From an uncultured Mollicutes bacterium (GTDB lineage Bacteria; Bacillota_I; Bacilli_A; ML615J-28; CAG-313): DNA of 64,000 bases. Shown here piece by piece: positions 13,046 through 37,946 of this stretch. The notes below the pieces were generated by a model. It did no database searches. It saw only the letters and a program-made list of their open reading frames with translations, and was not told where the DNA came from. The stretch is from assembly GCA_900538885.1 (NCBI GenBank), contig UQAI01000001.1:25862-89861 (forward strand), given 5' to 3'. Numbering within the stretch: position 1 is the first letter of the stretch; each line of letters starts with the position of its first letter. Position numbers and translations under genes: made by a program.

Positions 13046-16000
13046 ATGGCAAGTGGTTTTAATGAAGCAACTAGAGTTCAAATGCCTGCTCTAGTTCATT
13101 TACAAAGATTAGGCTATACATACGTCGGAAAAATAACCGAAGATCAAGCTGGTGTTGTTTATGATCCTGACACCAATATTTTAATCAAAGTCTTTAAAGA
13201 ACAATTTTGTAAGTTGAATCCTGGTCATGAAGGTGAAGCAGAACAAGTACTGAAAGATATTAGAATAGAATTGGATAATGATGATCTAGGTCGTTCATTC
13301 TTTAAAAGAATGCAAATGGTATCACCAGTAAAAATCATAGATTTTGATAATATTCAAAATAACGTATTCCACTATACTGCTGAATTTACATGCAAAAGAG
13401 ATCAAGATGAATTTAGACCTGATATTACATTATTTGTTAATGGATTACCTTTATGTTTTATAGAAGTTAAAAAGCCAAACAATAAAGGTGGATTGATCGC
13501 TGAAAGTAATAGAATGAACAATCAGAGATTTCCAAATAAGAAATTTAGAAGATTCATTAACATTACCCAACTTATGATTTTCTCGAATAATATGGAATAT
13601 GATACTCTTGGAGGAATTGTACCAGTTCAAGGTGCTTTTTATTGTACTGCTTCAAGAAATAAGTCTTTTTTCAGTTGCTTTAGAGAAGAGAATCCTGGCA
13701 ATGCCTCAGTTGCGCCATACAATAAAAATTATCCTTATGAAGAGATTGATGCTGTTGTAGAAAAGAAGATTTTATCTGATTTCAATTGCCAAGTAATTCA
13801 TACATCTCCAGAATATCAAACAAACCTAAATATCAATACACCTACAAATAGAATTTTAACTTCTATGTGCAGTAAAGAACGTCTTATGTTCTTGCTAAAA
13901 TATGGAATCGCATATGTTAAAAGTGAACGTGAAGTTGATGGTAAAATTGAGAGTACAGACCAAAAACATATTATGCGTTATCAACAGATGTTTGCTGCTT
14001 TGGCCATTAGAGAAAAATTAGATAAAGGATTGACAAGCGGTGTTGTTTGGCATACTCAAGGTAGTGGAAAAACCGCACTATCTTATCATCTTAACCATGT
14101 ATTAACTGATTACTTTGCAAAGCAAAATAAAGTAGCAAAATTTTATTTTATCGTTGATAGACTTGATTTATTAGAACAAGCTTCTCAGGAATTTGAAGCC
14201 AGAGGATTGGTTGTAAAAACTGCGAACAGTAGATCAGAATTGATGGCGCAATTTAGAACTAACCAGTCTTTAGAGGGTAATAGTGGTGCCAATGAAGTAA
14301 CTGTTGTTAATATCCAAAGGTTCGAAGAAGATAAAGAGAAAGTTACACTTCCTGATTATGCTACGAATTTACAAAGAATTTTTATAATTGACGAAGCTCA
14401 CAGAGGATATAAGCCAGAGGGTAGTTTTTTAGCTAATCTATTCGATGCTGATCCTAATTCTGTCAAAATCGCATTAACAGGTACACCTTTATTGAAGGAA
14501 GAACGTTCATCTTGGAAAGTATTCGGTACATATTACCATACATATTACTATGATAAATCGATTCAAGATGGATATACATTAAAGGTATTAAGAGAGCCTG
14601 TTGAAACATCATATAAAGAAAAATTATCTGAAATATATGAAAAATTAGAAACACTAGTTCAAAAGAAGGATGTCCAAAGAACACAAATAATTGAGCATGA
14701 TGTTTATGTTAAAGAACTTTTGAGATATATCATTTCAGATTTAAAACAGTTTAGACAAATCCAAGGTGACGATACTCTTGGAGGCATGATCATTTGTGAA
14801 ACAAGTGAGCAAGCAAGAAAATTATTCGCTTTCTTTGATAGCATTCAAAAAGAACTAAATGAGAATGCGTCGTTAAAGAGTTATTTTAAGGCTGGATTAA
14901 TATTGCATGACAGCGATGATAAAGAAACTAGAAAAAAGACTGTTACAAATTTCAAGAAGAACATGACAATCGATATTTTAATCGTATTTAATATGCTATT
15001 AACAGGCTTTGATGCTCCAAGACTTAAGAGATTATATTTTGGCAGAAAATTAAAAGATCACAATTTATTACAAGCTATTACGCGTGTGAATAGACCATAT
15101 AAAGAAAATAGATATGGTTATGTAGTTGATTTTGCTGATATTAAGAAAAATTTCGATGAGACTAACGAAGCTTATATGAAGGAATTAAACCGATTCAATG
15201 ATCCTGGCGAAGTTGGCGAAGGAAACGAGACTGACACATTCAAACAAGTTATAGAAGATAAAGACGCATTGATTCAACAGATGCAAGAGGTAAAGCAAAT
15301 TTTATTTGCTTATACAACGGATAATGCAGAGGAGTTTAGTTCTGAAATCTCTACGATTGAGGATAAAGAAGAACTTTTGAAATTGAAAAAAGCACTGGTA
15401 TCAGCTAGAGATTGTTGCAACATTGTAAGAACATTTGGTGATGATGAATTAAAAGCTAAATTTGCAGCAATGGAGATTACTAAACTTCCTTCATTAATAT
15501 CAGAAGTGCAACATCACATTGACAGCATAAATCAAAAAGAAGCATTAGCTGAAAGTGACTCAACAAAGCAATTAATTAATGAAGCAATGCAAGATATTAC
15601 TTTCAAGTTTCAAATGTTGACAGAAGAAGAAATGAAAATTATTTCAGGAGGCCAGGAGTTAGAAGATAAGTGGAAGAAGACAATTCGTTCATTTACTGAA
15701 AACGAGGACCAAGAAGATCCAGAATACATTACTTTACGTCAAGCATTTATTGAAAGATTCAAAGAACATGGTTTTGTTGTTGAAAGTGTAAGCCAATTTG
15801 AAAATTATACAAAGGAGCTAGATGAAATATTAAAGAAGCTAGCTGAATTGCAAAAGAAGAATAGTGCACTGTTGAAAAAGTACAATGGTGATGCTAAGTA
15901 TGCGCGTGTCCATAAGAGAATTAAAGAAGAAAACGAAAGCAGAAAAGCTAAAGGTGAGAAGCCACTAATTTCTGAATATGATGTCGATATTATGAATGCG

Positions 16001-16213
16001 CTAAAAATTATTAAAGATGAGATAGACCAAAAAGTTTACGATAGGCATGATATCTTGAGAAAAGATGTTTACTTTGAGCAAACAGTTATGGTACATATCA
16101 ATAATGGTATTGATAGATTAGGCTTTGAAAATACTAGGGAAGATAGATTGTTTATTCAATCAAGACTAAGCACCCAGTATTTAAATCAATACCATAATAC
16201 ATATGCAGCATAA
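13046..16213 (+). CDS. hsdR: Type I restriction enzyme R subunit (HsdR)
   Basis: HsdR N-terminal nuclease domain, SF2 helicase motifs TQGSGKT and IIDEAHRG, 1055 aa. Confidence 0.9.
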   Translation: MASGFNEATRVQMPALVHLQRLGYTYVGKITEDQAGVVYDPDTNILIKVFKEQFCKLNPGHEGEAEQVLKDIRIELDNDDLGRSFFKRMQMVSPVKIIDFDNIQNNVFHYTAEFTCKRDQDEFRPDITLFVNGLPLCFIEVKKPNNKGGLIAESNRMNNQRFPNKKFRRFINITQLMIFSNNMEYDTLGGIVPVQGAFYCTASRNKSFFSCFREENPGNASVAPYNKNYPYEEIDAVVEKKILSDFNCQVIHTSPEYQTNLNINTPTNRILTSMCSKERLMFLLKYGIAYVKSEREVDGKIESTDQKHIMRYQQMFAALAIREKLDKGLTSGVVWHTQGSGKTALSYHLNHVLTDYFAKQNKVAKFYFIVDRLDLLEQASQEFEARGLVVKTANSRSELMAQFRTNQSLEGNSGANEVTVVNIQRFEEDKEKVTLPDYATNLQRIFIIDEAHRGYKPEGSFLANLFDADPNSVKIALTGTPLLKEERSSWKVFGTYYHTYYYDKSIQDGYTLKVLREPVETSYKEKLSEIYEKLETLVQKKDVQRTQIIEHDVYVKELLRYIISDLKQFRQIQGDDTLGGMIICETSEQARKLFAFFDSIQKELNENASLKSYFKAGLILHDSDDKETRKKTVTNFKKNMTIDILIVFNMLLTGFDAPRLKRLYFGRKLKDHNLLQAITRVNRPYKENRYGYVVDFADIKKNFDETNEAYMKELNRFNDPGEVGEGNETDTFKQVIEDKDALIQQMQEVKQILFAYTTDNAEEFSSEISTIEDKEELLKLKKALVSARDCCNIVRTFGDDELKAKFAAMEITKLPSLISEVQHHIDSINQKEALAESDSTKQLINEAMQDITFKFQMLTEEEMKIISGGQELEDKWKKTIRSFTENEDQEDPEYITLRQAFIERFKEHGFVVESVSQFENYTKELDEILKKLAELQKKNSALLKKYNGDAKYARVHKRIKEENESRKAKGEKPLISEYDVDIMNALKIIKDEIDQKVYDRHDILRKDVYFEQTVMVHINNGIDRLGFENTREDRLFIQSRLSTQYLNQYHNTYAA

Positions 16214-16225
16214 GGAGAGAAATAT

Positions 16226-17848
16226 ATGAATATTAAACAAAAAACAATTGACTTAATTGATGCATTGAAAGCCACTTGTCAAACATACGGAATGGGTAAT
16301 GATGGAAATGAATATAAAATTATTACACAAGTATTTTTGTATAAGTTTTTAAATGATAAATTTGGACATGAGATTAAAGAAAAGTCAGTAAAAATTGCTA
16401 AAGCAGCTAAATGGGAAGAAGAATATGAAAGCATGAGTAATGAAGAAAGGTTGGATTTATTTGATAAGCTTTCTCCTGATATTCCTCGATTATATCCTGA
16501 ACACCTTATATCGTTTTTATGGAATCAACAAAGTAAAGGTGAATTTGACTTAATTTTCGATAGCACAATGATAGATATAGCTGAGAAGAACATTGATATC
16601 TTCTCGACTATGACAGATGAAAAAACTAGAATTCCTTTATTTGAAAAATTAACCGTATTTGTTACTGATGAAGCTAAAAGAGCGCCATTTGCACGTGCTT
16701 TAGTTGATAAATTAGCAAACTTCTCTTTTGAAGAGGCGTTTTCAGAACACTATGACTTTTTTGCAACAATTTTTGAATATTTGATTAAGGATTACAATAC
16801 AGCAGGCGGTGGAAAGTATGCTGAATATTATACTCCACACTCAATTGCTACAATTATGGCTAGACTATTAGTTGGAGAAACTGATAATTTGCATGACATA
16901 GAAGTATATGATCCATCTGCTGGCACAGGAACATTATTGATGGCTCTTGCACATAAAGTTGGTGAAGATAAGTGCACCATTTATTCTCAAGACATTTCAC
17001 AAAGAAGTAATAAGATGTTGAAATTAAATTTAATATTAAATAATTTAGTTTCATCACTTGATCATGCTATTCAAGGTGATACTTTGGTTTCACCATTTCA
17101 TAAAAATGATGATGGCACTGAGTTAAAACAATTTGACTTTGTTGTTTCTAATCCACCATTCAATATGGATTTTTCTGACACCAGAGATATAATCGCAGCA
17201 AAGACAACTAGATTCTGGGCAGGCGTTCCAAATATTCCAAAGAAAAAACTTGATGGTATGCCAATATATACATGTTTTATACAACATGTTGTTAATTCTT
17301 TAAAGAAAACTGGAAAGGCAGCTATCGTTGTACCTACGGGTTTTTTATCATCTAAAAGTGGTGTTGAAGGTACCGTTTTATCAAAATTAGTGGAAGAGAA
17401 GATAGTATATGGATGTATAAGCATGCCTTCAAACGTTTTTGCTAACACCGGAACTAATGTGTCAGTTTTATTTTTAGATGGTTCTAAATCAAGTACAGAT
17501 GTTATGCTTATAGATGCTTCAAAATTAGGTGAAGAATATAAGGAAGGAAAGAATCAAAAGAGAAGATTAAGAGATTTTGAAATTAATCAGATAGTTGATT
17601 CATTTATTAATAAAGTATCAAATGACGGCTTTTCTATTAACGTTAGTTTGGATAAGGTAAAAGAAAAGAAAAATTCATTATCAGCTGGAATGTATTTTAA
17701 AGTCAAAACTGATAATCCAACTATATCTACCTCAAAATATAATGAAATCGTCTGTGATTATATTACAGCATTGGATGAATACAAGCTAAATGCAGATAAT
17801 TTTGTTGAGTGGGCGAAAGATAGTTTATTAAAGAAGAATGATAAATAG
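16226..17848 (+). CDS. hsdM: Type I restriction-modification N6-adenine DNA methyltransferase subunit (HsdM)
   Basis: HsdM N-terminal domain, SAM motif DPSAGTGTLL, catalytic NPPF motif (VVSNPPFNMDF). Confidence 0.9.
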   Translation: MNIKQKTIDLIDALKATCQTYGMGNDGNEYKIITQVFLYKFLNDKFGHEIKEKSVKIAKAAKWEEEYESMSNEERLDLFDKLSPDIPRLYPEHLISFLWNQQSKGEFDLIFDSTMIDIAEKNIDIFSTMTDEKTRIPLFEKLTVFVTDEAKRAPFARALVDKLANFSFEEAFSEHYDFFATIFEYLIKDYNTAGGGKYAEYYTPHSIATIMARLLVGETDNLHDIEVYDPSAGTGTLLMALAHKVGEDKCTIYSQDISQRSNKMLKLNLILNNLVSSLDHAIQGDTLVSPFHKNDDGTELKQFDFVVSNPPFNMDFSDTRDIIAAKTTRFWAGVPNIPKKKLDGMPIYTCFIQHVVNSLKKTGKAAIVVPTGFLSSKSGVEGTVLSKLVEEKIVYGCISMPSNVFANTGTNVSVLFLDGSKSSTDVMLIDASKLGEEYKEGKNQKRRLRDFEINQIVDSFINKVSNDGFSINVSLDKVKEKKNSLSAGMYFKVKTDNPTISTSKYNEIVCDYITALDEYKLNADNFVEWAKDSLLKKNDK

Positions 17849-17859
17849 GAGCTGTAAAT

Positions 17860-19116
17860 ATGAAACTAAGAAATATATGTAAAATAGTTACAGACTCAAT
17901 TAATCCAAAAAAACAAAAAAATAAGCTTTTCGAGCTATATAGTTTGCCCGCTTTCGATGATTTCAAAAGGCCTGAAAATGTATATGGCTCAGATATCGAG
18001 AGCAATAAGTATTTGGTTCCAGAAAAAACAATATTGTTTAATAAATTAAATGTTAGATTCAAACGTATATGGAGGATCACCAACAATAACCAGGATAATA
18101 AAATATGCTCAACTGAGTTTCTACCAATAATTGTTGATGAAAAAATAGCCGATTTTGATTATGTTTATTTTTTATTGATGTCAGATCAAGTCACAGAATA
18201 CTTATGTGCACCAACAACTAATACTTCTGGAAGTCATAAGAGAATAGATCCAGATTTTCTACTTGATATGGAAATATCCTTGCCTGAATTAGACGAGCAA
18301 GTTCGCGTTGCAAGAAAACTAAAAACGCTAGATGATGAGGTTCAGTGTTGTTTTGATTTTGAAACTAAATCATTTAAATTTTTAAAAGATACATATGATT
18401 ACTGGTTTGTTTCTTATAACTTTCCTAACAATAATGGTGATGCATATAGTGAAAATGGTGGAACATTTGTAGAGGACAAAGAAACAGGTATTAATTATCC
18501 AACAAAATGGAGTTTTAATAAGATCGGACAGTATTTTAATGTTGTGAGAGGTGTAAGTTATAAGCCTGAAGATACTTCGGAAATAGAAACCGATATTCAT
18601 ATGCCGTTATTAAGATCAAATAATATTTACGACGAGAGATTAATACATGAAGATATAGTGTTTGTTGATAAAAAAAGGGTAAGTGAAGAACAAATATTAC
18701 ATGCAAATGATGTGTTTATTTGTATGTCTAATGGCAGTAAAAATTTAATTGGTAAAAATACAATTATTCCATATGATACAGAATATGCCTTTGGAGCTTT
18801 TTGTGCTAAAATTAAGAATATAGATTGCGATTATTTAGGCTTTATAAACTTATTCTTTAAGAGTAATTATTATAAAGCTTATATCGCACAAATATGTGCA
18901 AACACTAGTATAAATAATATCGGAAATGAAATGTTAACTGACTTAAAATATCCATTACCTCCGCTAAATATCGCTAAAAAGTTTAATGAAATATATTTAA
19001 AAGTAATGTCTGAAGTCGGGAATGCGCATAAATTTATGTTATCGACAAGAACATTATTAGAAAAACATATATTTATGGACATGAATGGAGTACTCATAAA
19101 TAGTTCAGAAGATTAA
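17860..19116 (+). CDS. hsdS: Type I restriction-modification specificity subunit (HsdS), two target-recognition domains
   Basis: 418 aa, duplicated TRD/conserved-helix architecture, immediately downstream of hsdM. Confidence 0.85.
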   Translation: MKLRNICKIVTDSINPKKQKNKLFELYSLPAFDDFKRPENVYGSDIESNKYLVPEKTILFNKLNVRFKRIWRITNNNQDNKICSTEFLPIIVDEKIADFDYVYFLLMSDQVTEYLCAPTTNTSGSHKRIDPDFLLDMEISLPELDEQVRVARKLKTLDDEVQCCFDFETKSFKFLKDTYDYWFVSYNFPNNNGDAYSENGGTFVEDKETGINYPTKWSFNKIGQYFNVVRGVSYKPEDTSEIETDIHMPLLRSNNIYDERLIHEDIVFVDKKRVSEEQILHANDVFICMSNGSKNLIGKNTIIPYDTEYAFGAFCAKIKNIDCDYLGFINLFFKSNYYKAYIAQICANTSINNIGNEMLTDLKYPLPPLNIAKKFNEIYLKVMSEVGNAHKFMLSTRTLLEKHIFMDMNGVLINSSED

Positions 19117-19358: not shown

Positions 19359-21188
19359 TTATGCTTTCCTTACATTCTTTAAGAAGCCGTATCTACCTTT
19401 GTTTTCTTTTTGAGTGAACTTGTAGATAACAACATCATCGTTAATTTCTAATTCAGGCAATTCGCTGTATTTTGTGTTTTCAATTATAACGATCTGGTCT
19501 GCTGTTTCAAGATTTATTAAATAATCAAAGAATCCTTTTCTAACGTTATCTGAATCCTCATCTTTATCTTCAGGAACTGATAATCCCTTAAGTGGTGAAT
19601 CTAAGAACCAGAAGCAGCCTTTGTTGGCACTTTTTTCTTCTATGTACTTCCTTAAAAGAAGAATAAGCATGGAGTTGGTGAACGCTTTATATCCTTTACC
19701 ACGTCTGATCTTATTCTTATTGTTAACTATTAAATCTAACTTGGTTTCAGTAAAGTCAATAGTACTGATATTTGGGTATTTAACGTCAGTAAAGATTTGA
19801 ACACCGTTATCAATTACATATTGACCTATGATTGAGAATAGAATTTTCTTTGCTTCAAATTTTAGTTTAGGTACATCATCACCTTTTTGGTATTTCTTTA
19901 AGTCTTCTTCAAGATCAACGTCATTTGCTCCTAGTTCATCAATCGCAGACTTAAGTCGAATATACTCTTCATAACTTTGAATTTTTTTCGCAAGTTCTGT
20001 TCTCTTAGGAGTAAGGACTTCATTGATTTTTGTTTTGTTGATTTCTATTGTTTCTTTATAGACAGCAATTAGATCCCCATCATCATCCAATGTATCTTTT
20101 AGCATTGCTGATGTCTCATCTAGTTCATTAAGATTGTTAACAACATTTCTTAGTTCGACTTTTGCAGCTTCGATATAAGAAGTAGGGTTTTTTGGAGTCA
20201 TTTCATGGTCACAGTAAGGGCATTTAGATTTTGTTGTCTTGTGGCCTATAGAGACTTCATTATTAACGATAAATGTTAATCTATTAATTTCCTTTTGATA
20301 GTCACTTTTTAATTCTTCATATTTAGAGAATATTAATTCATTTTTTTGTTGTTTCTTTTGAAGAGTCATTAAGTTAAATGATGTAGTGGTATTTTCAGAT
20401 GTTAAGCGTTCAATCTCATCGTTTAACTTTATAAGACTCTCATTTAGTTCTTGAATAACAGTTTCTAATGAAGCTAGGTCAATGCCTGATTGCTTTAGTT
20501 TATCTTCTAAAACTTCCTTCTTTTTAGACATAGCTATTCTATGTTCTGAAATGTAGGCGATTACTGCATTTCTTTTTGCTTTTTTGATTTCGTCAGATTC
20601 ATCTTTTTTTAGATAGTCTTCTAGCGTATTTCCAGTAAGGAAATATATTAATGCAGCAAGATATGTGGTCTCTCCATTTTGTTGAAGAAGTACGGATTTA
20701 GGCTTGTCAGCTTTATCTTCATCAATTAGGAATGTTTTTTTAATCGTTCTCCAAGAAAATCTTTCTGGATCGCCATCAATATTAGAAGGAATCTTAAGGT
20801 CATCCTTTAATCCTAATATCTTAAGCATCAATTTATCTATCGTTTTATTATTTTTTTTACCTTCCTTAAGAACATATTCGCCGCTTTCAATTTCAGGATT
20901 GTCACAAGAAACTGTGGTTTTAGAAGTGCCTTGTACTCTGGTTAGTGTGATGTCACCGTATTGAGTTTCAATTATTAGGGTGATGGTATCAAACCCATCT
21001 GACTCATCGAATGGAGCATGATCGTCATCGTTTTTAGCACCAAGTACATAATCAACGCATTTATAAATACAGGATTTACCAGTATCAGAAGGTCCAGCGA
21101 TAATGGTTAGTTTATTTCCGAATTCAATTTCTGATGGTTCAGCATTTGGTCCGGTAGCAATAAGCTTTTTAAGTTTAATAAAACCCAT
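19359..21188 (-). CDS. Rad50/SMC-like ABC ATPase with central coiled coil and CxxC zinc-hook (LmuB / ABC-3C ATPase-like)
   Basis: Walker A GPSDTGKS at N-terminus, ~250-aa heptad-rich coiled coil with CPYC at its midpoint, C-terminal Walker B/D-loop FWFLDSPLKGLS. Confidence 0.6.
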   Translation of the reverse strand: MGFIKLKKLIATGPNAEPSEIEFGNKLTIIAGPSDTGKSCIYKCVDYVLGAKNDDDHAPFDESDGFDTITLIIETQYGDITLTRVQGTSKTTVSCDNPEIESGEYVLKEGKKNNKTIDKLMLKILGLKDDLKIPSNIDGDPERFSWRTIKKTFLIDEDKADKPKSVLLQQNGETTYLAALIYFLTGNTLEDYLKKDESDEIKKAKRNAVIAYISEHRIAMSKKKEVLEDKLKQSGIDLASLETVIQELNESLIKLNDEIERLTSENTTTSFNLMTLQKKQQKNELIFSKYEELKSDYQKEINRLTFIVNNEVSIGHKTTKSKCPYCDHEMTPKNPTSYIEAAKVELRNVVNNLNELDETSAMLKDTLDDDGDLIAVYKETIEINKTKINEVLTPKRTELAKKIQSYEEYIRLKSAIDELGANDVDLEEDLKKYQKGDDVPKLKFEAKKILFSIIGQYVIDNGVQIFTDVKYPNISTIDFTETKLDLIVNNKNKIRRGKGYKAFTNSMLILLLRKYIEEKSANKGCFWFLDSPLKGLSVPEDKDEDSDNVRKGFFDYLINLETADQIVIIENTKYSELPELEINDDVVIYKFTQKENKGRYGFLKNVRKA

Positions 21189-21190
21189 AA

Positions 21191-21628
21191 TTATTTCTTA
21201 ACTCCTTTCGTTCTATCTTTTAATTTTTGTATCGTAATAGGCTTCATTTCATCTATGATGTTAGAAGCGAATTTTTTATATTCTATAGAGTAATCATCGT
21301 TCATTTCTGACACATATGCCTTACCAGAATCGGTAATTGCGTATATAAAACCTCTATCTGGATTGTTCGTTACAGTAGCAAGACCTCTGAATAATAGTTC
21401 TTTTAGCGAGTTCTTTATAAGCTTGCGCTGTATTGTGAACTCGTTAAGTGGAAATGAGCAGACACCGTTTAAGTTTGATTCACCAAATCCATAATGTTCA
21501 GCATATATGGCAAAGAAGTCCAGACGCGCTATTTCATCTTCGTTTAGATAACTTTGTTTATCTAAAATCATAAGAAGGCGCATAGAAACTTCAAATTCAG
21601 TATTAAAAAGCTTTGTCATTATAGCCAC
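21191..21628 (-). CDS. small alpha-helical middle component (LmuC-like) of the three-gene ATPase system
   Basis: 145 aa, overlaps upstream gene by 10 nt and sits 2 nt from ATPase gene; size and position match the middle component of ABC three-component systems. Confidence 0.4.
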   Translation of the reverse strand: MAIMTKLFNTEFEVSMRLLMILDKQSYLNEDEIARLDFFAIYAEHYGFGESNLNGVCSFPLNEFTIQRKLIKNSLKELLFRGLATVTNNPDRGFIYAITDSGKAYVSEMNDDYSIEYKKFASNIIDEMKPITIQKLKDRTKGVKK

Positions 21629-22581
21629 CTTACCTTTCCGTCATTAACAAGCATGTGGACCATGCCCATTTTCTCTTCAGTTCCTACCATACCATTGCCA
21701 GCAGTAGTGAAATAACTTTTTGAAAAGGTAATAACCATCACTTTATCCATTGTCTTATTTAATTTTTCATAAGCATCAGGAACCATTGAATTTGTATAAA
21801 GTCTTATTGCTTTATAAATCTCGTCTTTCATAGATGAAAATTCCTGTTCACCATCGTAGAAGAAATTTCTAACTTGTCTTAGCACCGTTTCAGCACTATA
21901 AAAGGCTTCACGATGTATTTGTAATTCCATTTGATAAACTGGATGACCATCCAAATCACCTATCGATGATATTGATTCACCAGTCTTTTGCGAGTAAACA
22001 GATAATAGTGCAGTTACATATTCACTTTCCATATCGTCGGGATTATCTGGGACAGTAAGTGCTGGTGGTAGAGTGTATTCAGTTCCACCAATTCTAACTT
22101 TATTGCCTGGAAGGAACACAGCTTTTTTAATAGATGTTTTTCTATTCTTCTCTGAACGCTCTTGAAGTAAATCTGCAAAGACATTAGCTAATTCTTCAGG
22201 TAAGTCAATACCTGCAAGAGTGACTCCTTTCTTAGCAAAGTTATCAATAAGTAAGCCTATGGCTTCATCAGTCAATTCAGCTGCATCATATACATCTTGA
22301 AAGTACTCTGATGTTATTTTACTTTTTAAATATCTGGCATCCTTAATTGGCATGTCGGTGTCATTTGTTTCATTAAGCAATTTTTCACAGTAGTTTTCAG
22401 ACTTCATTGTTATGTCATTAAGAATTTTATTATCGATTAATGAAATATCTGTAAACCAAGTTATTACATCTTGGTAAATAAGACGTGCACTTAATCTATG
22501 TGTTTCAGGATCGACTTGTATTTGGCTGGCAAATGCATTCTTAATTAAGTTTATAAACTCGTATATTTTCATTATTATCAC
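21619..22581 (-). CDS. first gene of the three-gene operon; candidate sensor/effector (LmuA-like position) with no recognisable catalytic motif
   Basis: 320 aa, translationally coupled to the next gene; no nuclease/TIR/Sir2/protease signature visible by eye. Confidence 0.4.
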   Translation of the reverse strand: MIIMKIYEFINLIKNAFASQIQVDPETHRLSARLIYQDVITWFTDISLIDNKILNDITMKSENYCEKLLNETNDTDMPIKDARYLKSKITSEYFQDVYDAAELTDEAIGLLIDNFAKKGVTLAGIDLPEELANVFADLLQERSEKNRKTSIKKAVFLPGNKVRIGGTEYTLPPALTVPDNPDDMESEYVTALLSVYSQKTGESISSIGDLDGHPVYQMELQIHREAFYSAETVLRQVRNFFYDGEQEFSSMKDEIYKAIRLYTNSMVPDAYEKLNKTMDKVMVITFSKSYFTTAGNGMVGTEEKMGMVHMLVNDGKVRWL

Positions 22582-30956: not shown

Positions 30957-31307
30957 ATGCCAACAAAACCAAAGAAACCATGCGCATATCCTGGCTGTCC
31001 TAACCTAACCTTTGATGTTTATTGTGAAGAGCACGCTGCCTTAAGAAGAAAGCAGTACGACAAGTACAACAGGTCTCCAAACCACGATAAGAAGTATGGT
31101 AACAACTGGAGACGTATTAGAGGGCTTTATGTTAAGAAGCATCCGCTTTGTGAACGCTGCTTGGAAGAAGGAAGAATCACACCTGTTGAAGAGGTTCATC
31201 ATATCATACCTCTTTCTCGTGGAGGAACTAATCAGTTCAGTAATCTTATGTCGTTGTGTCAGAGTTGTCATACGAAGATTCATTACGAACTTGGCGATAG
31301 GAAATAG
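30957..31307 (+). CDS. HNH homing endonuclease (terminase-associated)
   Basis: CERC...HHIIPLSRGG...CQSCH HNH motif; adjacent to small terminase as in cos-type siphoviruses. Confidence 0.8.
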   Translation: MPTKPKKPCAYPGCPNLTFDVYCEEHAALRRKQYDKYNRSPNHDKKYGNNWRRIRGLYVKKHPLCERCLEEGRITPVEEVHHIIPLSRGGTNQFSNLMSLCQSCHTKIHYELGDRK

Positions 31308-31448
31308 GGGTAGGGGAGTCAAAATCTCTACAACTAAAAATAAGAAGACCGAGCCTGGGGTTTCGTGTGCAAAAATTGGAGTTCAAACGGGGTAATAGCC
31401 AAATGAACTCTTTTTAATTATTCAAAATTGAAAAAGGAGGATGATGTA

Positions 31449-31994
31449 ATGGCAAAAGATGGAACGATGCGTGGTGGTCCTAGACCAAATACAGGGCCAA
31501 AAAAGAAAGCCTTAGCTGATAAATTGCTCGAAGGAAAAGCAGAACTAGACAATGGCGCTGTGGTACTTCCTGAGCCAGTCGAAATTGAAGGTGTGGATAT
31601 GCCACCAATCAAGGACTTTTTAAAAGCAAAACAGAAAAACGGAAAAGATATGTGCGCTGAGGAAGTTTATAAAAGTACATACCTTTGGTTAAAAAAGAGA
31701 CATTGCGAAAAGCTGGTATCAACTCAGCTGCTAGAACAATATGCGATGTCAGTTTCTCGTTGGGTTCAATGTGAAGAAGCAATATCAGAATTTGGATTTT
31801 TAGCAAAGCATCCTACAACTGGAAATGCCATGCAAAGTCCATACGTGGCGATGAGCCAAAATTATATGAAACAGGTCAATCAGGTCTGGTTTCAAATTTA
31901 TCAAGTTGTGAAGGATAACTGCTCTTCTGATATAAGCGGTGCTAATCCTCAAGATGACTTGATGGAAAGATTGCTACAAGCAAGAAAGAGGTAA
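31449..31994 (+). CDS. phage terminase small subunit (P27-family-like)
   Basis: basic N-terminus GGPRPNTGPKKK, ~180 aa, upstream of the large terminase; start at ATG 31449 behind AAGGAGGA RBS. Confidence 0.6.
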   Translation: MAKDGTMRGGPRPNTGPKKKALADKLLEGKAELDNGAVVLPEPVEIEGVDMPPIKDFLKAKQKNGKDMCAEEVYKSTYLWLKKRHCEKLVSTQLLEQYAMSVSRWVQCEEAISEFGFLAKHPTTGNAMQSPYVAMSQNYMKQVNQVWFQIYQVVKDNCSSDISGANPQDDLMERLLQARKR

Positions 31995-32000
31995 TTAAAT

Positions 32001-32783
32001 ATGTTTGAAAAAGTAAATCCATGTCACCCAGATAAGGTGGCTGATAGAATTGCTGGTGCTTTAGTCGACTTAGCATACAAGCAAGAAGAAAACCCAAGAA
32101 TTGCAGTTGAAGTTTTAATTGGTCATGGCAAGTGTCATATCATTGCAGAAACTTCCGCATTCCTTGATATAAATGATATTTCAAAAGCGGTTCATAGAAT
32201 TGCTGGAGATATTCAAGTTGACTGTGTAATTGTGCCTCAAGATAGACACTTATCTGATAACCAAGAGGGCGCAATTAGATGTGGTGATAATGGTATCTTC
32301 AAAGGAGTACCATTAACAAAAGAACAAAAAGAACTAACACAAATTGCACATAAAATATTTGCTGCTTATTCTTGTGATGGAAAATATATCTTAAATGGCG
32401 ATAGGTTAATCATCTGCCAAAGTAATGCTACAACTGAAGAATTAAAGAAAGAGTATCCAAATTCAGAGATTAATCCATTAGGTTATTGGACAGGAGGAAC
32501 TGATGTCGATACTGGTGCAACCAATAGAAAACTAGGTTCTGATATGGCTGATTCAGTAACTGGTGGTGGACTTCATGGAAAAGATCTATCCAAAGCAGAT
32601 GTCAGTGTAAATATCTACGCTTGGTTAAAAGCTCAAGAGACAGGGGTTCCAGTTGAACTTTGCTGTGCTATTGGTGATGAGTACATTGACAATAGGCCAT
32701 ATGAAGAAATCGTAGCTATTGCACGTGAGTTTATCTTTGACTTAGGAGGATTTGAAAAATTCGCTGAATGGGGGTTGGTATAA
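32001..32783 (+). CDS. minimised S-adenosylmethionine synthetase (MetK) homologue, 260 aa
   Basis: N-terminal CHPDKVADRIAGALVD (MetK GHPDKIADQISDAVLD), GDNGIF (MetK GDQGLMFGY), GGGLHGKDLSKADVS (MetK GGGAFSGKDPSKVDRS); about 120 aa shorter than bacterial MetK. Confidence 0.6.
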   Translation: MFEKVNPCHPDKVADRIAGALVDLAYKQEENPRIAVEVLIGHGKCHIIAETSAFLDINDISKAVHRIAGDIQVDCVIVPQDRHLSDNQEGAIRCGDNGIFKGVPLTKEQKELTQIAHKIFAAYSCDGKYILNGDRLIICQSNATTEELKKEYPNSEINPLGYWTGGTDVDTGATNRKLGSDMADSVTGGGLHGKDLSKADVSVNIYAWLKAQETGVPVELCCAIGDEYIDNRPYEEIVAIAREFIFDLGGFEKFAEWGLV

Positions 32784-34072
32784 TGAAGACTACAACTGAA
32801 ATGACTTTGATTTCTATTGATAAGCTCATCCCTTATATAAACAATGCACGCACACATAGTCCTGAGCAAATAACAAAACTAAGGTCATCTCTTCGTGAGT
32901 TTGGATTTGTAAATCCTGTATTAATTGATAGGAACTATAATATCATCGCTGGTCATGGAAGATATGAAGCTGCTAAAGCAGAAGGCTATAGTGAGGTTCC
33001 ATGTGTATATGTAGACCATTTATCTGAAGCTCAAAAGAAAGCATACATCATTGCTGATAACCGAATGGCAATGGATGCTGGATGGGATGAAGAATTATTA
33101 AAAGTTGAATTAGAGGCTCTCGAAGGAGAGTCTTTTGATTTATCTCTTACTGGTTTTGATGAAGACGAACTTGCAGATCTTTTTAAATCCGATGAAGCAC
33201 CTATTGAAGATGATGATTACGATTTAACTGAAGCATTAGAAAAGGCAGCATTCGTTGAAAGAGGCGATCGTTGGATAGTAGGAAGACACGTTCTTTATTG
33301 TGGTGATGCTACAAATAAAGATGATGTTGATAAATTAATGGATGGTAAAAGAGCAAACCTAGTTCTTACCGATCCACCCTACGGTGTTTCATTTAAGTCA
33401 AGTTCTGGCTTAACTATTAAAAATGACTCAATGAAGAATGATGAGTTCTACAACTTCTTAAAATCTGCCTTTGATAATATGGTGGCTCACTGTGAGAAAG
33501 GGGCTGCTGGATATGTATTCCACGCTGATACAGAAGGCTTGAACTTTAGAAAAGCATTCATTGATTCTGGTTTTCATCTTGCAGGATGTTGCATCTGGGT
33601 TAAAGATAGCTTGGTTTTAGGACGTTCAGATTATCAATGGCAACATGAACCTGTGCTTTATGGATTTTTACAAAACGGAAAACATAACTGGTATTCAGAT
33701 AGAAAACAAACAACTATCTGGAACTTCAAAAAGCCAAAGAGAAATGAAAATCATCCTACTTCAAAACCTCTAGACCTTTTATCTTATCCTCTTCAAAACA
33801 GCACAAGAGAGAATGCTATTGTTATTGATACATTTGGTGGTTCTGGTTCAACTCTTATGGCTTGCGAACTATCAAATAGAATCTGCTACACAATGGAACT
33901 TGATGAAAAGTACGCATCAGTAATCCTTAGACGTTACGTTGATAATGGAGGAGATCCTTCAGAAGTTTACTGTTTTAGAAATGGTGAAAAAGTAATGTAC
34001 GCTGATGTAGCTAAGGAAGTTGAAAAAAGAGATGGGAACCTTGAAGAAACACCATCAAATGACTTGATATAA
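32783..34072 (+). CDS. ParB-like nuclease domain fused to N6/N4 DNA methyltransferase (orphan phage methylase)
   Basis: N-terminal ParB/Srx GHGRYEAA region; methylase motif IV LTDPPYG and motif I FGGSGST. Confidence 0.8.
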   Translation: MKTTTEMTLISIDKLIPYINNARTHSPEQITKLRSSLREFGFVNPVLIDRNYNIIAGHGRYEAAKAEGYSEVPCVYVDHLSEAQKKAYIIADNRMAMDAGWDEELLKVELEALEGESFDLSLTGFDEDELADLFKSDEAPIEDDDYDLTEALEKAAFVERGDRWIVGRHVLYCGDATNKDDVDKLMDGKRANLVLTDPPYGVSFKSSSGLTIKNDSMKNDEFYNFLKSAFDNMVAHCEKGAAGYVFHADTEGLNFRKAFIDSGFHLAGCCIWVKDSLVLGRSDYQWQHEPVLYGFLQNGKHNWYSDRKQTTIWNFKKPKRNENHPTSKPLDLLSYPLQNSTRENAIVIDTFGGSGSTLMACELSNRICYTMELDEKYASVILRRYVDNGGDPSEVYCFRNGEKVMYADVAKEVEKRDGNLEETPSNDLI

Positions 34073-34120: not shown

Positions 34121-34330
34121 ATGACGAAAGTTGAATCATTAAGACTTGAACTTGAAAGAATTTGTAATGAAACTCAAACCAGATTATCTGGAATGCAAAA
34201 GCTAGTGGAGTACTACATCAGCTCACTTGGTTGGTCTGAAGAAAAAGCACTCCAATATGCACTTGCATTATTTCATAATGGCACAGTTACACAAATCAAA
34301 TTATTAGGAAAAGATGGTGAGGAACTATGA
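34121..34330 (+). CDS. hypothetical small protein
   Basis: 69 aa ORF, translationally coupled to the next ORF. Confidence 0.35.
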   Translation: MTKVESLRLELERICNETQTRLSGMQKLVEYYISSLGWSEEKALQYALALFHNGTVTQIKLLGKDGEEL

Positions 34331-34542
34331 GAAAAGCTGAACTTGAATCATTGAGAGTCCAATATCCAAAAGGTACTCGAGTAGAATTAGTGAAGATGGA
34401 TGATGTCCAAGCACCACCTGTTGGAACTAAAGGAACAGTAATTGGAGTTGATGACATTGGATCAATTATGGTTAATTGGGATAATGGAAGTTCACTCAAT
34501 GTTGTTTATGGTGAAGATGTTGTGAAGGTTCTAAAAGACTAG
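34327..34542 (+). CDS. hypothetical small protein (DUF4314-like)
   Basis: 71 aa beta-rich ORF. Confidence 0.35.
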   Translation: MRKAELESLRVQYPKGTRVELVKMDDVQAPPVGTKGTVIGVDDIGSIMVNWDNGSSLNVVYGEDVVKVLKD

Positions 34543-34669
34543 AGTTTATATATCAAAGATATATAAAAATAGTTAAAAAATATACACAAAATGACTTGCT
34601 ATTATGTCCTTTTAGAGTGATATATATACACGACGAAGGGAAGAAAAAACCTTCAAGGAGGACAAAGAA

Positions 34670-35629
34670 ATGAAGAACACAGAAAACCAAATCAACAATA
34701 TGAAACAACAAACCATCGGAGTAGAAATTGAAATGAATTCAATTACAAGACAAAAGGCAGCAAGATTAGTTGCTGAGCACTTCGGAACAACAGCCTGGAA
34801 CGCAGCAAGTGAATACGGATATTGCAGTTGGGCTTGCAAGGACCAACAAGGTAGAGTTTGGAAATTTCAAAAGGATGTATCAATTGCAGGACCAGACGAT
34901 GAAAAATGCGAACTTGTAACACCAATCCTTACTTACAGCGACATTGAAGATTTACAAGAGATTGTTAGAATCCTTAGAAAAGCAGGAGCAAAAAGCGATG
35001 CTTCAAGAATGTGTGGAGTTCACATTCACATTGGTGCAAAAGGACATACACCAAAAACAATGAGAAACCTTACAAACATTATGGCAAGCCACGAAGACCT
35101 TCTTGCAGAAGCCTTGGATTTAGATAGAAACAGAATTTCAAGATACTGCAGAACAGTTGATCCAAGATTCCTTAAGGAAGTCAACAAGAAGAAACCTCAA
35201 ACAATGAGCCAATTTGCAGACGTTTGGTACAAAAGCCAAGGCGAAGATTATGCAAGAAGCCACCATTACAATGGTTCAAGATACCACATGCTTAACTTCC
35301 ACGCTACCTTCACAAAAGGAACAATTGAATTCAGATTATTCCAATTTGATGAACCAAAGGATGGAAAAGCAAACGGACTTCACGCAGGACAACTTAAGAG
35401 CTACATTCAATTATGCTTAGCCCTTAGCCAACTTGCAAAGGATGCAAAAAGCGCATCAGCAAAACCTCAACAACATGAAAATCCAAAATACGCAATGAGA
35501 ACTTGGTTATTAAGATTAGGTTTCATTGGCGAGGAATTCAAGACAGCAAGAGACTTCTTAACAAGAAGACTTAGCGGTGACTGCAGTTTCAGAAGTGGGG
35601 TAAGACCTGCTTCTCAAGCAGCAATGTAG
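34670..35629 (+). CDS. amidoligase (glutamine-synthetase-like fold, Amidoligase_2 family)
   Basis: N-terminal IGVEIEM acidic strand and CGVHIHIG histidine motif characteristic of phage amidoligases. Confidence 0.55.
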   Translation: MKNTENQINNMKQQTIGVEIEMNSITRQKAARLVAEHFGTTAWNAASEYGYCSWACKDQQGRVWKFQKDVSIAGPDDEKCELVTPILTYSDIEDLQEIVRILRKAGAKSDASRMCGVHIHIGAKGHTPKTMRNLTNIMASHEDLLAEALDLDRNRISRYCRTVDPRFLKEVNKKKPQTMSQFADVWYKSQGEDYARSHHYNGSRYHMLNFHATFTKGTIEFRLFQFDEPKDGKANGLHAGQLKSYIQLCLALSQLAKDAKSASAKPQQHENPKYAMRTWLLRLGFIGEEFKTARDFLTRRLSGDCSFRSGVRPASQAAM

Positions 35630-35639
35630 GGAGGTGAGA

Positions 35640-36116
35640 ATGATGAGCAAATATTATTTAGCATATGGAAGTAACCTTAACATTAGACAAATGGCTTATA
35701 GATGCCCAACCGCCATTCCAGTAGGCATAGCAGTAATAAAGAACTATCGCTTGAAATTTAAAGGTAGCAAAACTGGTTCATACCTAACAATCGAAAAAGC
35801 AAAAGGGTATGAAGTTCCTGTAGCTGTATGGAAAGTTGAAGATGATGATGAACTTCATCTAGATTGCTATGAGGGTTATCCTACCTTTTACTACAAGAAG
35901 GAAATCGAGATAGATTTCATTAGCATCAAAAGAAAATTACCGCATCACGCTAAAGCATTTGTATACATAATGCATGAAGATAGAAAACTAGGAATACCAA
36001 CAAAGCGTTATATTGATGTTTGTTTAGAAGGATATAAAGCATTTGGTTTTAACCCAGTAAGATTATTTGAAGCCATTAATTTATCAAAGGAGGATGTCAA
36101 AAATGGAAACAACTAA
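35640..36116 (+). CDS. gamma-glutamyl cyclotransferase (GGCT/AIG2-like)
   Basis: YLAYGSNL N-terminal signature of GGCT/AIG2 proteins; GGGAGG RBS. Confidence 0.6.
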   Translation: MMSKYYLAYGSNLNIRQMAYRCPTAIPVGIAVIKNYRLKFKGSKTGSYLTIEKAKGYEVPVAVWKVEDDDELHLDCYEGYPTFYYKKEIEIDFISIKRKLPHHAKAFVYIMHEDRKLGIPTKRYIDVCLEGYKAFGFNPVRLFEAINLSKEDVKNGNN

Positions 36117-36291
36117 GATTTGTCCTAAATGTGGAAAAACTTATCGAGGACACCCTGCAATATCAAGGGTAGATAACGAAACGCCAATATGCCCAGAATG
36201 CGGAACAAGAGAGGCTCTTGAAGGACTAGGAATACCGCCTGAGGAAATTGAAAATATCATTCATACAATTCCAAAAGTTGAAGATAAATAA
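36103..36291 (+). CDS. small zinc-ribbon protein (two CxxC pairs)
   Basis: CPKCGK...CPECG; AAGGAGG RBS 8 nt upstream of ATG 36103. Confidence 0.4.
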   Translation: METTKICPKCGKTYRGHPAISRVDNETPICPECGTREALEGLGIPPEEIENIIHTIPKVEDK

Positions 36292-36344
36292 AATGTTGAA
36301 GTCGGCTACGGTCGGCTTTTTCTTATGACAAGGAGGAGGAATTT

Positions 36345-37946
36345 GTGAGAAAACTAAAAAAATATGTTCCAACAAAGTTCAAAGCAAAAGACTCCACTTA
36401 CGATAAAGAAGCAGCTGATTTTGCAGTGAACTTCATTGAATGTTTATGTCATACAAAAGGAACGTGGGCTGGTGAGCCTTTTGAATTAATCGACTGGCAA
36501 GAACAAATAATAAGAGATCTCTTTGGAATTCTAAAACCAAATGGATATAGACAATTCAATACTGCTTATATTGAGATTCCAAAGAAACAAGGTAAGTCAG
36601 AACTTGCTGCAGCAGTAGCTTTACTCCTTACCTGTGGTGATGGTGAGGAAAGAGCTGAAGTTTATGGCTGTGCAGCCGATAGACAACAAGCATCAATCGT
36701 ATTTGAAGTTGCAGCGGATATGATAAGGATGTGTCCAGCTCTTAATAAAAGATGCAAAATACTAGCTGCAACAAAGAGAATAGTGTATTTACCTACAAAT
36801 AGTTTTTATCAGGTTTTGTCAGCTGAAGCATACTCGAAACATGGATTTAATATTCATGGTGTTGTCTTTGATGAGCTTCACACTCAACCAAATAGAAAAT
36901 TATTTGATGTTATGACTAAAGGTTCAGGCGACGCACGTATGCAACCTTTATATTTTTTAATAACAACTGCAGGAACTGATACTAAATCAATATGCTATGA
37001 AACACACCAAAAGGCAAAAGATATCATTGAAGGTAGAAAAAAGGACCCGACTTTCTATCCAGTAATATATGGAGCAGAGGTTGATGATGATTGGACTGAT
37101 CCTAAGGTTTGGAAGAAGGCAAATCCTAGTCTAGGAATAACAGTAGGTATTGATAAAGTTAAAGCTGCATGTGAGTCGGCAAAACAGAATCCAGCAGAAG
37201 AGAATTCATTCAGACAGCTTCGTCTAAACCAATGGGTAAAGCAAGCAGTCAGGTGGATGCCTATGGAAAAATGGGATGCTTGCTGCTTTGATTTTAATCC
37301 AGATGATTTAAAAGGTAGAGTTTGTTATGGCGGATTAGACTTATCATCAACAACCGATATTACAGCCTTTGTCTTAGTCTTTCCACCGACTGAAGAAGAT
37401 GAGCATTATTATGTCTTACCTTATTTCTGGATACCTGAGGATAATATGGATTTGAGAGTTGCAAAAGACCATGTTCCTTATGACTTATGGAATACACAAG
37501 GTTTCATTGAAACAACTGAAGGAAACGTAATTCATTATGCTTATATCGAACATTTCATTGAAGAATTAGGTCTTAAGTACAACATTAAAGAGATAGCTTT
37601 CGATAGATGGGGTGCTACAATGCTCGTTCAAAATCTAGAAGGTTTAGGATTTACTGTTGTTCCATTCGGTCAGGGCTTCAAAGATATGAGTCCACCAACG
37701 AAGGAACTAATGAATTTAGTTTTATCAAAAGAACTAAGACATAATGGTCAACCAGTCTTAAGGTGGATGATGGACAATGTGTGTGTAAGAACTGATCCTG
37801 CAGGAAATATCAAAATGGACAAGTCGAAGTCCACAGAAAAAATCGATGGTGCTGTGGCAACAGTTATGGCTCTAGATAGAGCAATAAGAAATAAAAATGG
37901 GACTTCTGATTCGGTATACGATTCAAGAGGTCTTTTATTTATCTAG
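36345..37946 (+). CDS. phage terminase large subunit
   Basis: 533 aa; ATPase Walker A/B (VFDELH) and C-terminal RNaseH-like nuclease; followed by the portal gene. Confidence 0.9.
   Translation: MRKLKKYVPTKFKAKDSTYDKEAADFAVNFIECLCHTKGTWAGEPFELIDWQEQIIRDLFGILKPNGYRQFNTAYIEIPKKQGKSELAAAVALLLTCGDGEERAEVYGCAADRQQASIVFEVAADMIRMCPALNKRCKILAATKRIVYLPTNSFYQVLSAEAYSKHGFNIHGVVFDELHTQPNRKLFDVMTKGSGDARMQPLYFLITTAGTDTKSICYETHQKAKDIIEGRKKDPTFYPVIYGAEVDDDWTDPKVWKKANPSLGITVGIDKVKAACESAKQNPAEENSFRQLRLNQWVKQAVRWMPMEKWDACCFDFNPDDLKGRVCYGGLDLSSTTDITAFVLVFPPTEEDEHYYVLPYFWIPEDNMDLRVAKDHVPYDLWNTQGFIETTEGNVIHYAYIEHFIEELGLKYNIKEIAFDRWGATMLVQNLEGLGFTVVPFGQGFKDMSPPTKELMNLVLSKELRHNGQPVLRWMMDNVCVRTDPAGNIKMDKSKSTEKIDGAVATVMALDRAIRNKNGTSDSVYDSRGLLFI

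Follow-up and report, generated by a model that had tools for sequence, protein, structure and literature searches.

Genetic Organization of the Locus

The window considered here, meaning the whole stretch of 64,000 nucleotides, contains a prophage extending from ~23 kb to 60.7 kb, with replication, packaging, head and tail genes as well as two serine recombinases. GC content is 0.37–0.41 in the prophage versus ~0.30 in the flank, and the phage modules together with this compositional contrast bear out the description of the locus as prophage-encoded in an earlier note on this DNA.

Within the packaging operon lies a gene for a 260-aa homologue of methionine adenosyltransferase (MAT; S-adenosylmethionine [SAM] synthetase), here termed mini-MetK, at 32001..32783 on the forward strand, as are all the features described below. 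It was assigned to family phrog_1569 and recognized in Pfam, PHROG, PDB and fold searches. The ORF begins at the first available start codon past the upstream stop, and a Shine-Dalgarno-like AAGAGG (31986..31991) can be read in the sequence 9 nt 5′ of the ATG. The window sequence shows neither a promoter nor a terminator dedicated to this gene. All three MetK hallmark motifs quoted in the earlier note were found in the translation, namely CHPDKVADRIAGALVD (aa 8–23), GDNGIF (aa 95–100) and GGGLHGKDLSKADVS (aa 188–202), and its estimate that the protein is ~120 aa shorter than bacterial MetK was close, since E. coli MetK has 384 aa (sequence verified) and the difference is thus 124 aa.

The gene for the terminase small subunit (TerS; 31428..31994; Pfam Terminase_4, phrog_83) ends 6 nt before the mini-MetK start and is itself preceded by an HNH endonuclease gene (30957..31307; Pfam HNH, E 1.5e-16), which is also found 5′ of TerS in most related loci. 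On the other side lies a DNA methyltransferase gene (32783..34072; longest ORF from 32768) with an N-terminal ParB domain and an N6/N4 (beta-class, DPPY) domain. The adjoining ParB-domain methylase of the earlier note was confirmed by matches to ParB_N (PF02195, E 3e-8), N6_N4_Mtase (PF01555, E 1.2e-21) and phrog_498 (E 1e-178), and its translation shows TDPPYGV and a C-terminal SAM-binding FGGSG motif (DTFGGSGST). Translation of the methylase probably begins at ATG 32783, because this codon overlaps the mini-MetK stop in a TAATG (32781–32785) and because relatives of the methylase begin with MKTTTEM. From this arrangement of the sequence, the two genes are probably translationally coupled.

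Between the methylase and the terminase large subunit (TerL), genes for a DUF4314 protein, an Amidoligase_2 protein, a GGACT-like cyclotransferase and a small zinc-ribbon-like ORF occupy 34327..36291. In tblastn comparisons, TerL itself (36345..37946) is 72–95% identical to its counterparts in related phages, some of them annotated as terminase large subunit in GenBank, and is followed by the portal gene, so that the interval from TerS to TerL encloses the accessory module. A tblastn search of the window revealed no second MetK and no C5 DNA methylase elsewhere.

A Type I restriction-modification (R-M) system with hsdR, hsdM and hsdS (13046..19116; Pfam HSDR_N/SWI2_SNF2, N6_Mtase and Methylase_S) is indeed present, as the earlier note had stated. 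Its placement in the same locus was generous, since the system lies 13 kb upstream of mini-MetK, outside the phage modules, in DNA of host-like composition (GC 0.30–0.33, resembling the flank), and an ABC-3C-like defence locus intervenes between it and the phage genes. The R-M system was accordingly rejected as a part of the module; the link is only one of proximity to a host-like defence island.

Conservation in Related Phages

The order HNH, TerS, mini-MetK and ParB-methylase is strongly conserved in related phages. In most of these loci the TerS match ends ~11 nt before the MetK-like match (tblastn), and a ParB-domain methylase begins less than 150 nt 3′ of mini-MetK in 70 of 78 loci. Among 73 loci located by way of the methylase, a short MetK lay directly 5′ of it in 43 and 5′ behind inserted genes in 13, a canonical MetK of 345 or 390 aa with all three Pfam MAT domains occupied the same slot in another 13, and no MetK was present in 4; many of the loci in these counts come from related phages and do not count as independent observations. 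In two loci (L004 and L072) the short MetK has C5 DNA methylases as neighbours, and a degenerate relative of mini-MetK, P0218, also follows a C5 methylase. The amidoligase, GGACT and other accessory genes recur in many of the related loci, though not all. They were considered as obligatory partners and rejected, as several loci with the MetK-methylase pair have neither amidoligase nor GGACT.

Gut phages very commonly carry members of the mini-MetK gene family, which had been annotated before. Homologues fall into more than 8000 groups when clustered at 90% identity, 223 representatives remain at 50% identity (E ≤ 1e-30), and matches in species-representative genomes exceed 569. Values of dN/dS for mini-MetK range from 0.045 to 0.15.

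A Trimmed MAT Fold

By sequence, mini-MetK is a distant relative of known MATs. Pfam S-AdoMet_synt_N (PF00438) matched it at E 3e-11 (44 bits versus a cut-off of 33.1), there was no Pfam match to the central and C-terminal MAT domains (PF02772 and PF02773), and the protein fell far below the cut-off of the NCBI metK equivalog TIGR01034 (53.9 versus 309.4 bits). Identity to canonical MetK is ~24%. With canonical bacterial enzymes (E. coli MetK, PDB 1FUG/7LL3; Thermus-type, 5H9U), mini-MetK shares the GHPDK-like, GDxG and GGGxxxGKDxSKxD motifs. In a phmmer search of the PDB, MATs were the sole significant relatives, through matched stretches at aa 3–65 and aa 146–212. Profile methods extended the similarity: phrog_1569, whose function is listed as unknown by PHROG, aligned mini-MetK residues 1–259 with profile positions 4–336 of 346 (E 5.3e-71, 240.8 bits), and hhalign aligned the family profile with E. 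coli MetK residues 8–343 over 267 columns at a probability of 98.6%.

An AlphaFold2 (AF2) model of mini-MetK reached a pLDDT of 95.6 and a pTM of 0.93 when the input alignment held 39 diverse members of the family; with 50 sequences at least 81% identical, the pLDDT was 55 and the model was unusable. Foldseek matched the better model to solved MATs, whose chains are 361–415 aa each versus 260 aa here, at E 5e-20 and TMq 0.70–0.77, and the MAT fold covered 249 of the 260 residues. In the model, the three beta-alpha-beta-beta-alpha-beta repeats and the flat sheet that characterize the three-domain MAT fold are all predicted. Relative to E. coli MetK, mini-MetK is missing several loops, the tips of the strand 6–7 hairpin, most of helix 4 and the C-terminal helices. 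Sequence and fold searches returned MATs only, with neither the fold nor the sequence of a SAM lyase in mini-MetK, and a search of the model against the viral structures in BFVD yielded nothing meaningful. The earlier note had allowed that the similarity might be confined to a short N-terminal stretch; the profile alignment and fold match across the whole protein rule this out, and on the alignments and the predicted structure, the entire mini-MetK is a MAT fold.

Retention of the Active Site

The earlier note had proposed structure prediction as a means of finding which active-site residues are retained, and had considered that the catalytic residues might all be lost. In fact, the predicted MAT core keeps the residues for Mg2+/K+, triphosphate, adenine and methionine, and 20 of the 20 ligand-binding and catalytic positions examined are kept. 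The roles of these residues (E. coli numbering without Met1) are those that published structures and mutagenesis have assigned in MetK. E. coli H14, D16, E42, E55, Q98 and D118 correspond to mini-MetK H9, D11, E37, E50, Q80 and D96; K165, D238, R244 and K245 to K128, D170, R176 and K177; and K265, K269 and D271 to K194, K198 and D200. K17, I102 and D266 also have counterparts, and the adenine-stacking F230 is replaced by a Trp that is invariant in the family. The DGK at 126–128, at the start of strand 6 in the model, is the likely counterpart of E. coli D163-A-K165; the pairing of D126/K128 with D163/K165 rests on strand order in the model, not on superposition, and sequence aligners, unlike the model topology, pair this DGK with E. 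coli DDGK. Residues contributed by both subunits of E. coli MetK are kept, and the gating loop is 4 residues shorter.

Active-site positions are at least 87% conserved, each in 34–39 of the 39 diverse family members, and in 33 of the 39 either all 20 sites or 19 of them are preserved. A few family members are without many of the catalytic residues, so that catalysis would not be obligatory in every relative. Two degenerate relatives come from contigs of only ~1.4 kb.

It was also conceivable, as the earlier note had recognized, that the ORF is a fragment of a longer MetK interrupted by a sequencing error. This is excluded by the use of the first available start codon after a stop, the methylase in the next frame and homologues of the same length: in the best 120 of the more than 8000 homologue clusters, length is almost always exactly 260 aa. 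Clearly, this near-uniform length, the low dN/dS, the homology over the whole protein and the retained ligand and catalytic positions are those of an intact gene rather than a remnant.

Another means by which a MAT fold could serve the phage is through a changed job, either by binding SAM or ATP as a catalytically inert companion of the methylase or by converting a different nucleotide or amino acid into an analogue of SAM with which DNA would be modified in an unusual way. The distance of the family from canonical MetK in identity and in NCBIfam score, the invariant Trp in place of F230 and the shorter gating loop would all fit such a shift, as would the degenerate P0218, which still stands behind a C5 methylase, and the nearby amidoligase and GGACT genes. 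Against this, the methionine-binding E55, Q98, D238 and K269 and the triphosphate-binding residues are all retained, the methylases found beside it are of ordinary N6/N4 and C5 types, canonical MetK takes the same slot, and many loci with the MetK-methylase pair have no amidoligase module. A changed job is therefore regarded as quite unlikely.

A Candidate SAM Supply for Phage DNA Methylation

The fold, the residues, the synteny and the occurrence of canonical MetK in the slot together back, in silico, the suggestion of the earlier note that mini-MetK is a stripped-down SAM synthetase for the neighbouring methylase. On sequence and model, it is probably an active, minimised enzyme that is co-expressed with the packaging genes and supplies phage DNA methylation. 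No enzyme assay of the short phage MAT family was found in the literature searched.

The predicted reaction would be that of any MAT, in which ATP and L-methionine yield SAM, PPi and Pi, carried out by a three-domain core that retains the Mg2+/K+, triphosphate, adenine and methionine residues and has shed ~124 peripheral ones. MATs are obligate dimers with the active site between subunits, and because of this placement, mini-MetK would likewise be required to form a homodimer. It would be produced late in the lytic cycle, alongside the methylase and the proteins for packaging, and would provide extra SAM outside the control that the host exerts on its own metK, at a time when hundreds of fresh genome copies would need methylation ahead of packaging. 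Methylated progeny DNA would then reach the next host shielded from restriction. Mini-MetK might also pass SAM straight to the methylase. That methylation would benefit from more SAM is offered as an argument. In a bolder form of this proposal, no natural SAM synthetase would be smaller than mini-MetK, which would be a self-sufficient, dimer-only MAT core of 260 residues and may dock on the ParB-methylase, with SAM both synthesized and consumed at the DNA during packaging in a “methylation factory” free of host SAM control; this is speculative and rather unlikely. In a weaker variant, some family members, including the degenerate ones, might act by binding methylases or host MetK and not through catalysis.

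The binding of host MetK leads to the second reading of the earlier note, in which the short protein is a dominant-negative subunit or decoy. It would pair with host MetK through the conserved flat interface, poison it, lower SAM and thereby disable SAM-dependent Type I/III restriction or BREX. Mixed dimers are conceivable because the conserved residues of which the MAT dimer interface is built are likewise kept in the short protein, and the degenerate active sites of a few relatives and a Type I R-M system 13 kb away could be read in the same way. The outcome would also be analogous to that of the T3 SAM lyase, a known inhibitor of MetK reported to overcome both Type I R-M and BREX (bioRxiv 10.1101/2023.02.27.530186). 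That lyase is, like mini-MetK, a phage protein with a bearing on restriction and on the SAM pool of the host, and it served as the model for the decoy idea, but its fold is unrelated (the fold search matched the MetK chain, 8bb1_A, of the lyase–MetK complex) and its predicted effect on SAM is the opposite. Anti-restriction functions act early, and T3 SAMase is an early gene, whereas mini-MetK lies in a late packaging operon with no promoter of its own. Moreover, the tight linkage and probable translational coupling to DNA methylases that require SAM speak against a decoy, since less SAM would defeat these very enzymes. Canonical 345- and 390-aa MetK genes fill the same slot, residues needed for chemistry alone (Mg2+ and triphosphate ligands) are strongly conserved, and the R-M system sits in host-like DNA. 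On these grounds, a decoy function is considered highly improbable.

A third possibility is lysogenic conversion, in which a prophage MetK would alter the SAM-dependent physiology of the lysogen (polyamines, AI-2 or surface polysaccharides) and not phage DNA methylation. Work with the Streptococcus agalactiae prophage 12/111phiA showed that deletion of the metK region led to less aggregation, glycocalyx and biofilm, phenotypes that were partly restored by plasmid-borne metK, although secondary mutations and the incomplete complementation weaken the case (PMC8223999). The 12/111phiA MetK is also probably of the longer type by an HNH gene, as in Javan181. In the window, mini-MetK lies within the packaging operon, lacks a promoter of its own and has a DNA methylase as its conserved partner. 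Lysogenic conversion is compatible with the supply of SAM to phage methylation; as the main role of the gene, it seems distinctly improbable.

Relation to Known Phage MetK Proteins

The longer phage MetK proteins occupy the same slot as mini-MetK, by HNH, TerS and the ParB-N6/N4 methylase and before TerL. They include those of 345 aa in L197 and Javan181, 390 aa in L200 and 353 aa in Streptococcus prophage Phi1207.3 (orf29). These proteins possess all three Pfam MAT domains, score 418 bits with the metK equivalog model, above its cut-off, and are 40–43% identical to E. coli MetK, whereas mini-MetK is ~25% identical to them and 85–130 aa smaller. A supply of methyl donor was proposed for the Phi1207.3 protein (PMC4260502), and the same role is proposed here for mini-MetK.

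In genomes of Ca. Heliusvirales gut phages, SAM synthetase (K00789) was counted in 58.9% and C5 methylase in 67%, and both were proposed to aid against restriction-modification (de Jonge et al. 2024, PMC11283538). In that paper, the count is KEGG-based only, and neither the truncated form, an analysis of residues or structure, nor an experiment appears. Since SAM synthetase genes and the anti-restriction rationale had thus been reported for these phages, novelty is limited to the minimal architecture, and the claim is a modest one in that both the gene class and the rationale were in the literature beforehand. What is new is that the most common form is, from sequence and model, a radically trimmed but apparently complete MAT.

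If active, mini-MetK would be one third smaller than any structurally solved MAT and would mark out the minimum that a universal enzyme needs as its catalytic core, with possible use as a compact biocatalyst for SAM and SAM analogues. A highly prevalent gut phage lineage would then carry a methyl-donor supply beside its DNA methylases, as metabolic backing for anti-restriction, and the SAM-dependent physiology of abundant gut Bacillota could shift. The closest GenBank phage (PV036447.1), whose protein is 84.6% identical, is classified in Ca. Heliusvirales, and the deposited NatCom records give the 260-aa gene the label “hypothetical protein”.

Fold and Length of the Short MetK

The short MetK is a 260-aa homolog of methionine adenosyltransferase (MAT; SAM synthetase), encoded at 32001..32783 on the plus strand, with its start at the first start codon past an in-frame stop and a Shine-Dalgarno-like AAGAGG 9 nt 5′ of that start. 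Pfam finds only an N-terminal MAT domain in the protein, it reaches 53.9 bits with the NCBI metK equivalog, whose cut-off is 309.4, and its PHROG family, phrog_1569, is listed as of unknown function. A family profile and a structure model were both built from 39 diverse members. The profile matched E. coli MetK (sequence checked against PDB 7LL3) with 98.6% probability over 267 columns, spanning E. coli residues 8–343, and the AF2 model from the diverse alignment reached a pLDDT of 95.6 and a pTM of 0.93, with top Foldseek matches in the PDB that were all MATs of 361–395 residues. As modeled, the protein has the MAT fold over its whole length, in a smaller form. A similarity confined to the N-terminus was rejected, since the profile homology covers the full length.

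Approximately 124 residues are absent relative to E. coli MetK, scattered through all three domains. Missing are the loops that follow helix 2 and precede helix 3, the end of helix 3, the tips of the strand 6–7 hairpin, most of helix 4, and a strand pair of the C-terminal domain plus the C-terminal helices, while the gating loop is shorter by four residues.

Active-Site Residues

The three MetK motifs quoted in the earlier note were all found in the protein, and its catalytic residues, as judged by alignment, are kept. With E. coli residues given first (numbered without Met1), the pairs are H14/H9, D16/D11, K17/K12, E42/E37, E55/E50, Q98/Q80, I102/L84, D118/D96, F230/W163, D238/D170, R244/R176, K245/K177, K265/K194, D266/D195, K269/K198, and D271/D200, positions that we take, from published MetK structures and mutagenesis, to bind Mg2+/K+, triphosphate, adenine, and methionine. 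A nearly invariant D126-G127-K128 starts strand 6 of the AF2 model, at the place of D163-A-K165 in E. coli; sequence aligners put it elsewhere, and we infer from topology that the two are probably equivalent.

Among the 39 diverse members, each of 20 active-site positions is kept in 34–39 sequences; 33 members have all 20 or all but one. Several positions are lost in five divergent representatives (P0135, P0184, P0218, P0221, and P0240), with P0240 deviating at 10 of the 20. On a 1.4-kb contig (L246, 116-1368), P0218 still comes directly after a C5 DNA methylase, of which the contig has the C-terminal part. Such degenerate members may act without catalysis or have decayed recently. Divergence and these few relatives are also the sole positive support for a changed function, whether in binding a partner or in making a SAM analog, which we regard as improbable for the short MetK.

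Distribution and Selection

Short MetK homologs make up at least 8000 clusters in a protein search, and among the best 120 of these the length is almost always exactly 260 aa. When representatives at 50% identity were searched exhaustively, 223 matched at E ≤ 1e-30, with full-length members of 260–325 aa. Species-representative genomes hold more than 569 copies, mostly in Clostridia, Bacilli, and Acholeplasma- or Anaeroplasma-like MAGs; matches in a phage collection include Streptococcus Javan prophages, one Gardnerella phage, and many gut phages. The closest genome match is an uncultured Anaeroplasmatales MAG (96% identical protein), and the closest GenBank phage is Anaeroplasmataceae phage NatCom_34063 (84.6%), classified in Ca. 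Heliusvirales. Against relatives with unsaturated dS, the dN/dS of 0.045–0.15 shows that the gene is under purifying selection. Given these values and the nearly uniform length of the best homologs, a fragment of a longer MetK or a decaying gene was rejected.

Gene Neighborhood

In the window, 6 nt separate the end of the terminase small subunit (TerS) gene from the short MetK start, and the short MetK TAA stop (32781-32783) overlaps, as TAATG, the ATG at 32783 of the next gene (32783..34072, plus strand). This ATG opens MKTTTEM, the N-terminus seen in homologs of the encoded ParB-methylase, which joins an N-terminal ParB domain to a PF01555 N6/N4 DNA methylase domain and contains TDPPYGV and, toward the C-terminus, FGGSG. 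No promoter-like or terminator-like sites were found between TerS, short MetK, and methylase, and their frequency in the region is not above that in shuffled sequence.

The MetK-like protein led to 80 loci in IMG/VR and to two GenBank phages, among which the order HNH, TerS, short MetK, ParB-methylase hardly varies. Of the 78 loci with sufficient downstream sequence, 70 have the start of a ParB-domain gene less than 150 nt away, and in 44 loci the tblastn matches of short MetK and methylase overlap by 9–12 nt, as in the window. In an independent set collected through the methylase (73 loci with sufficient upstream sequence), the short MetK lies immediately upstream in 43 and behind inserted genes in 13, another 13 carry, in exactly the same slot, a 345- or 390-aa canonical MetK in which Pfam recognizes each of the three MAT domains, and 4 have no MetK. 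Many loci are related phages, so these counts overstate independence; the methylases range from 39% to 96% identity. Short and canonical MetK are interchangeable in this slot. In L004 and L072, C5-cytosine DNA methylases are the direct neighbors of the short MetK.

Several loci show variation in the slot itself. The canonical 345-aa or 390-aa MetK replaces the 260-aa form in L197 (2955-3992) and L200 (1118-2290), phages whose ParB-methylase is ~79% and TerS 63–72% identical to those of the window, and the 260-, 345-, and 390-aa phage MATs form a natural size series. HNH_3-type endonuclease genes flank the short MetK on both sides in the TerS-methylase interval of L215 (1800-2597 and 3370-4008), suggesting homing-endonuclease traffic. 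In L217, a 367-aa ORF (1937-3040) without a Pfam match is inserted between short MetK and ParB-methylase; its CFRKCSFC (CX3CX2C) is reminiscent of radical-SAM enzymes.

Proposed Role and Precedents

Fold, residues, selection, synteny, and canonical replacement together favor the proposal of the earlier note, a minimized SAM synthetase supplying the methylase. The most economical reading, and in our view a probable one, is an active enzyme that sustains methylation of phage genomes before packaging. The short MetK, presumably dimeric, would be made together with the phage DNA methylase from a late packaging operon, and its SAM would keep replicated genomes methylated until they are packaged, with a possible benefit in escaping restriction. 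The dominant-negative MetK subunit also raised there was not borne out: the gene is linked to SAM-consuming enzymes, canonical MetK takes the same slot, residues needed only for chemistry are conserved, and the gene sits in what appears to be a late operon, all of which make such a subunit very unlikely. A role in lysogenic conversion, compatible with methylation before packaging, draws on S. agalactiae work in which a prophage metK region was deleted (PMC8223999). That work involved secondary mutations and partial complementation, and its MetK is probably of the longer type; we consider this role unlikely.

The gene class and its rationale are already known from De Jonge et al. 2024 (PMC11283538) and from a GenBank phage whose 261-aa homolog is labeled SAM synthetase; most records read "hypothetical protein". 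De Jonge et al. found SAM synthetase (K00789) in 58.9% and C5 methylases in 67% of 1032 Ca. Heliusvirales genomes and suggested for them a role in countering restriction-modification. In Streptococcus prophage Phi1207.3, a 353-aa MetK is accompanied by an HNH gene and a ParB-methylase, and the authors of that study proposed the MetK as a supplier of methyl donor (PMC4260502). Our literature search found no mention of the minimal 260-aa architecture, nor residue-level or structural analysis or enzymology of it. Interest would be higher if the protein were a self-sufficient 260-residue MAT or worked in complex with the methylase.

Prophage and Flanking DNA

The left part of the window carries host-like genes (Lon, RNase R) at a GC of ~0.30. 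The prophage runs from ~23 kb to 60.7 kb at a higher GC of 0.37–0.41 and encodes DUF2800, AAA_24, helicase, primase, RusA, HNH, TerS, the short MetK and methylase, followed by DUF4314, amidoligase, GGACT, the terminase large subunit (TerL), portal, head and tail genes, and two serine recombinases. The Type I R-M system that the earlier note placed in the same locus is complete (13046-19116) and indeed nearby, but it lies in low-GC, host-like DNA ahead of the prophage and is therefore a neighbor rather than part of the phage module. Together with a minus-strand ABC-3C-like locus (CTD6 domain protein and AAA_23-like ATPase, 19359-22581), it looks like a host defense island at the integration site.

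Between methylase and TerL, a gene set at 34327-36291 (DUF4314, Amidoligase_2, a GGACT-like gamma-glutamyl cyclotransferase, and a small zinc-ribbon-like ORF) recurs in many related phage loci. In the window, a terminator-like hairpin (36298-36319; 9-bp stem and T-rich tail) comes after this set, directly 5′ of the TerL start. Farther along the prophage, a patch with a GC of 0.31 encodes an 892-aa BspA-type leucine-rich-repeat protein (54106-56784), possibly a moron or surface protein. Two tandem large serine recombinases (57823-60740) close its right end, and a third, with a DUF4368 domain, follows just beyond on the minus strand (62794-63927); the three may mark nested or adjacent mobile elements.
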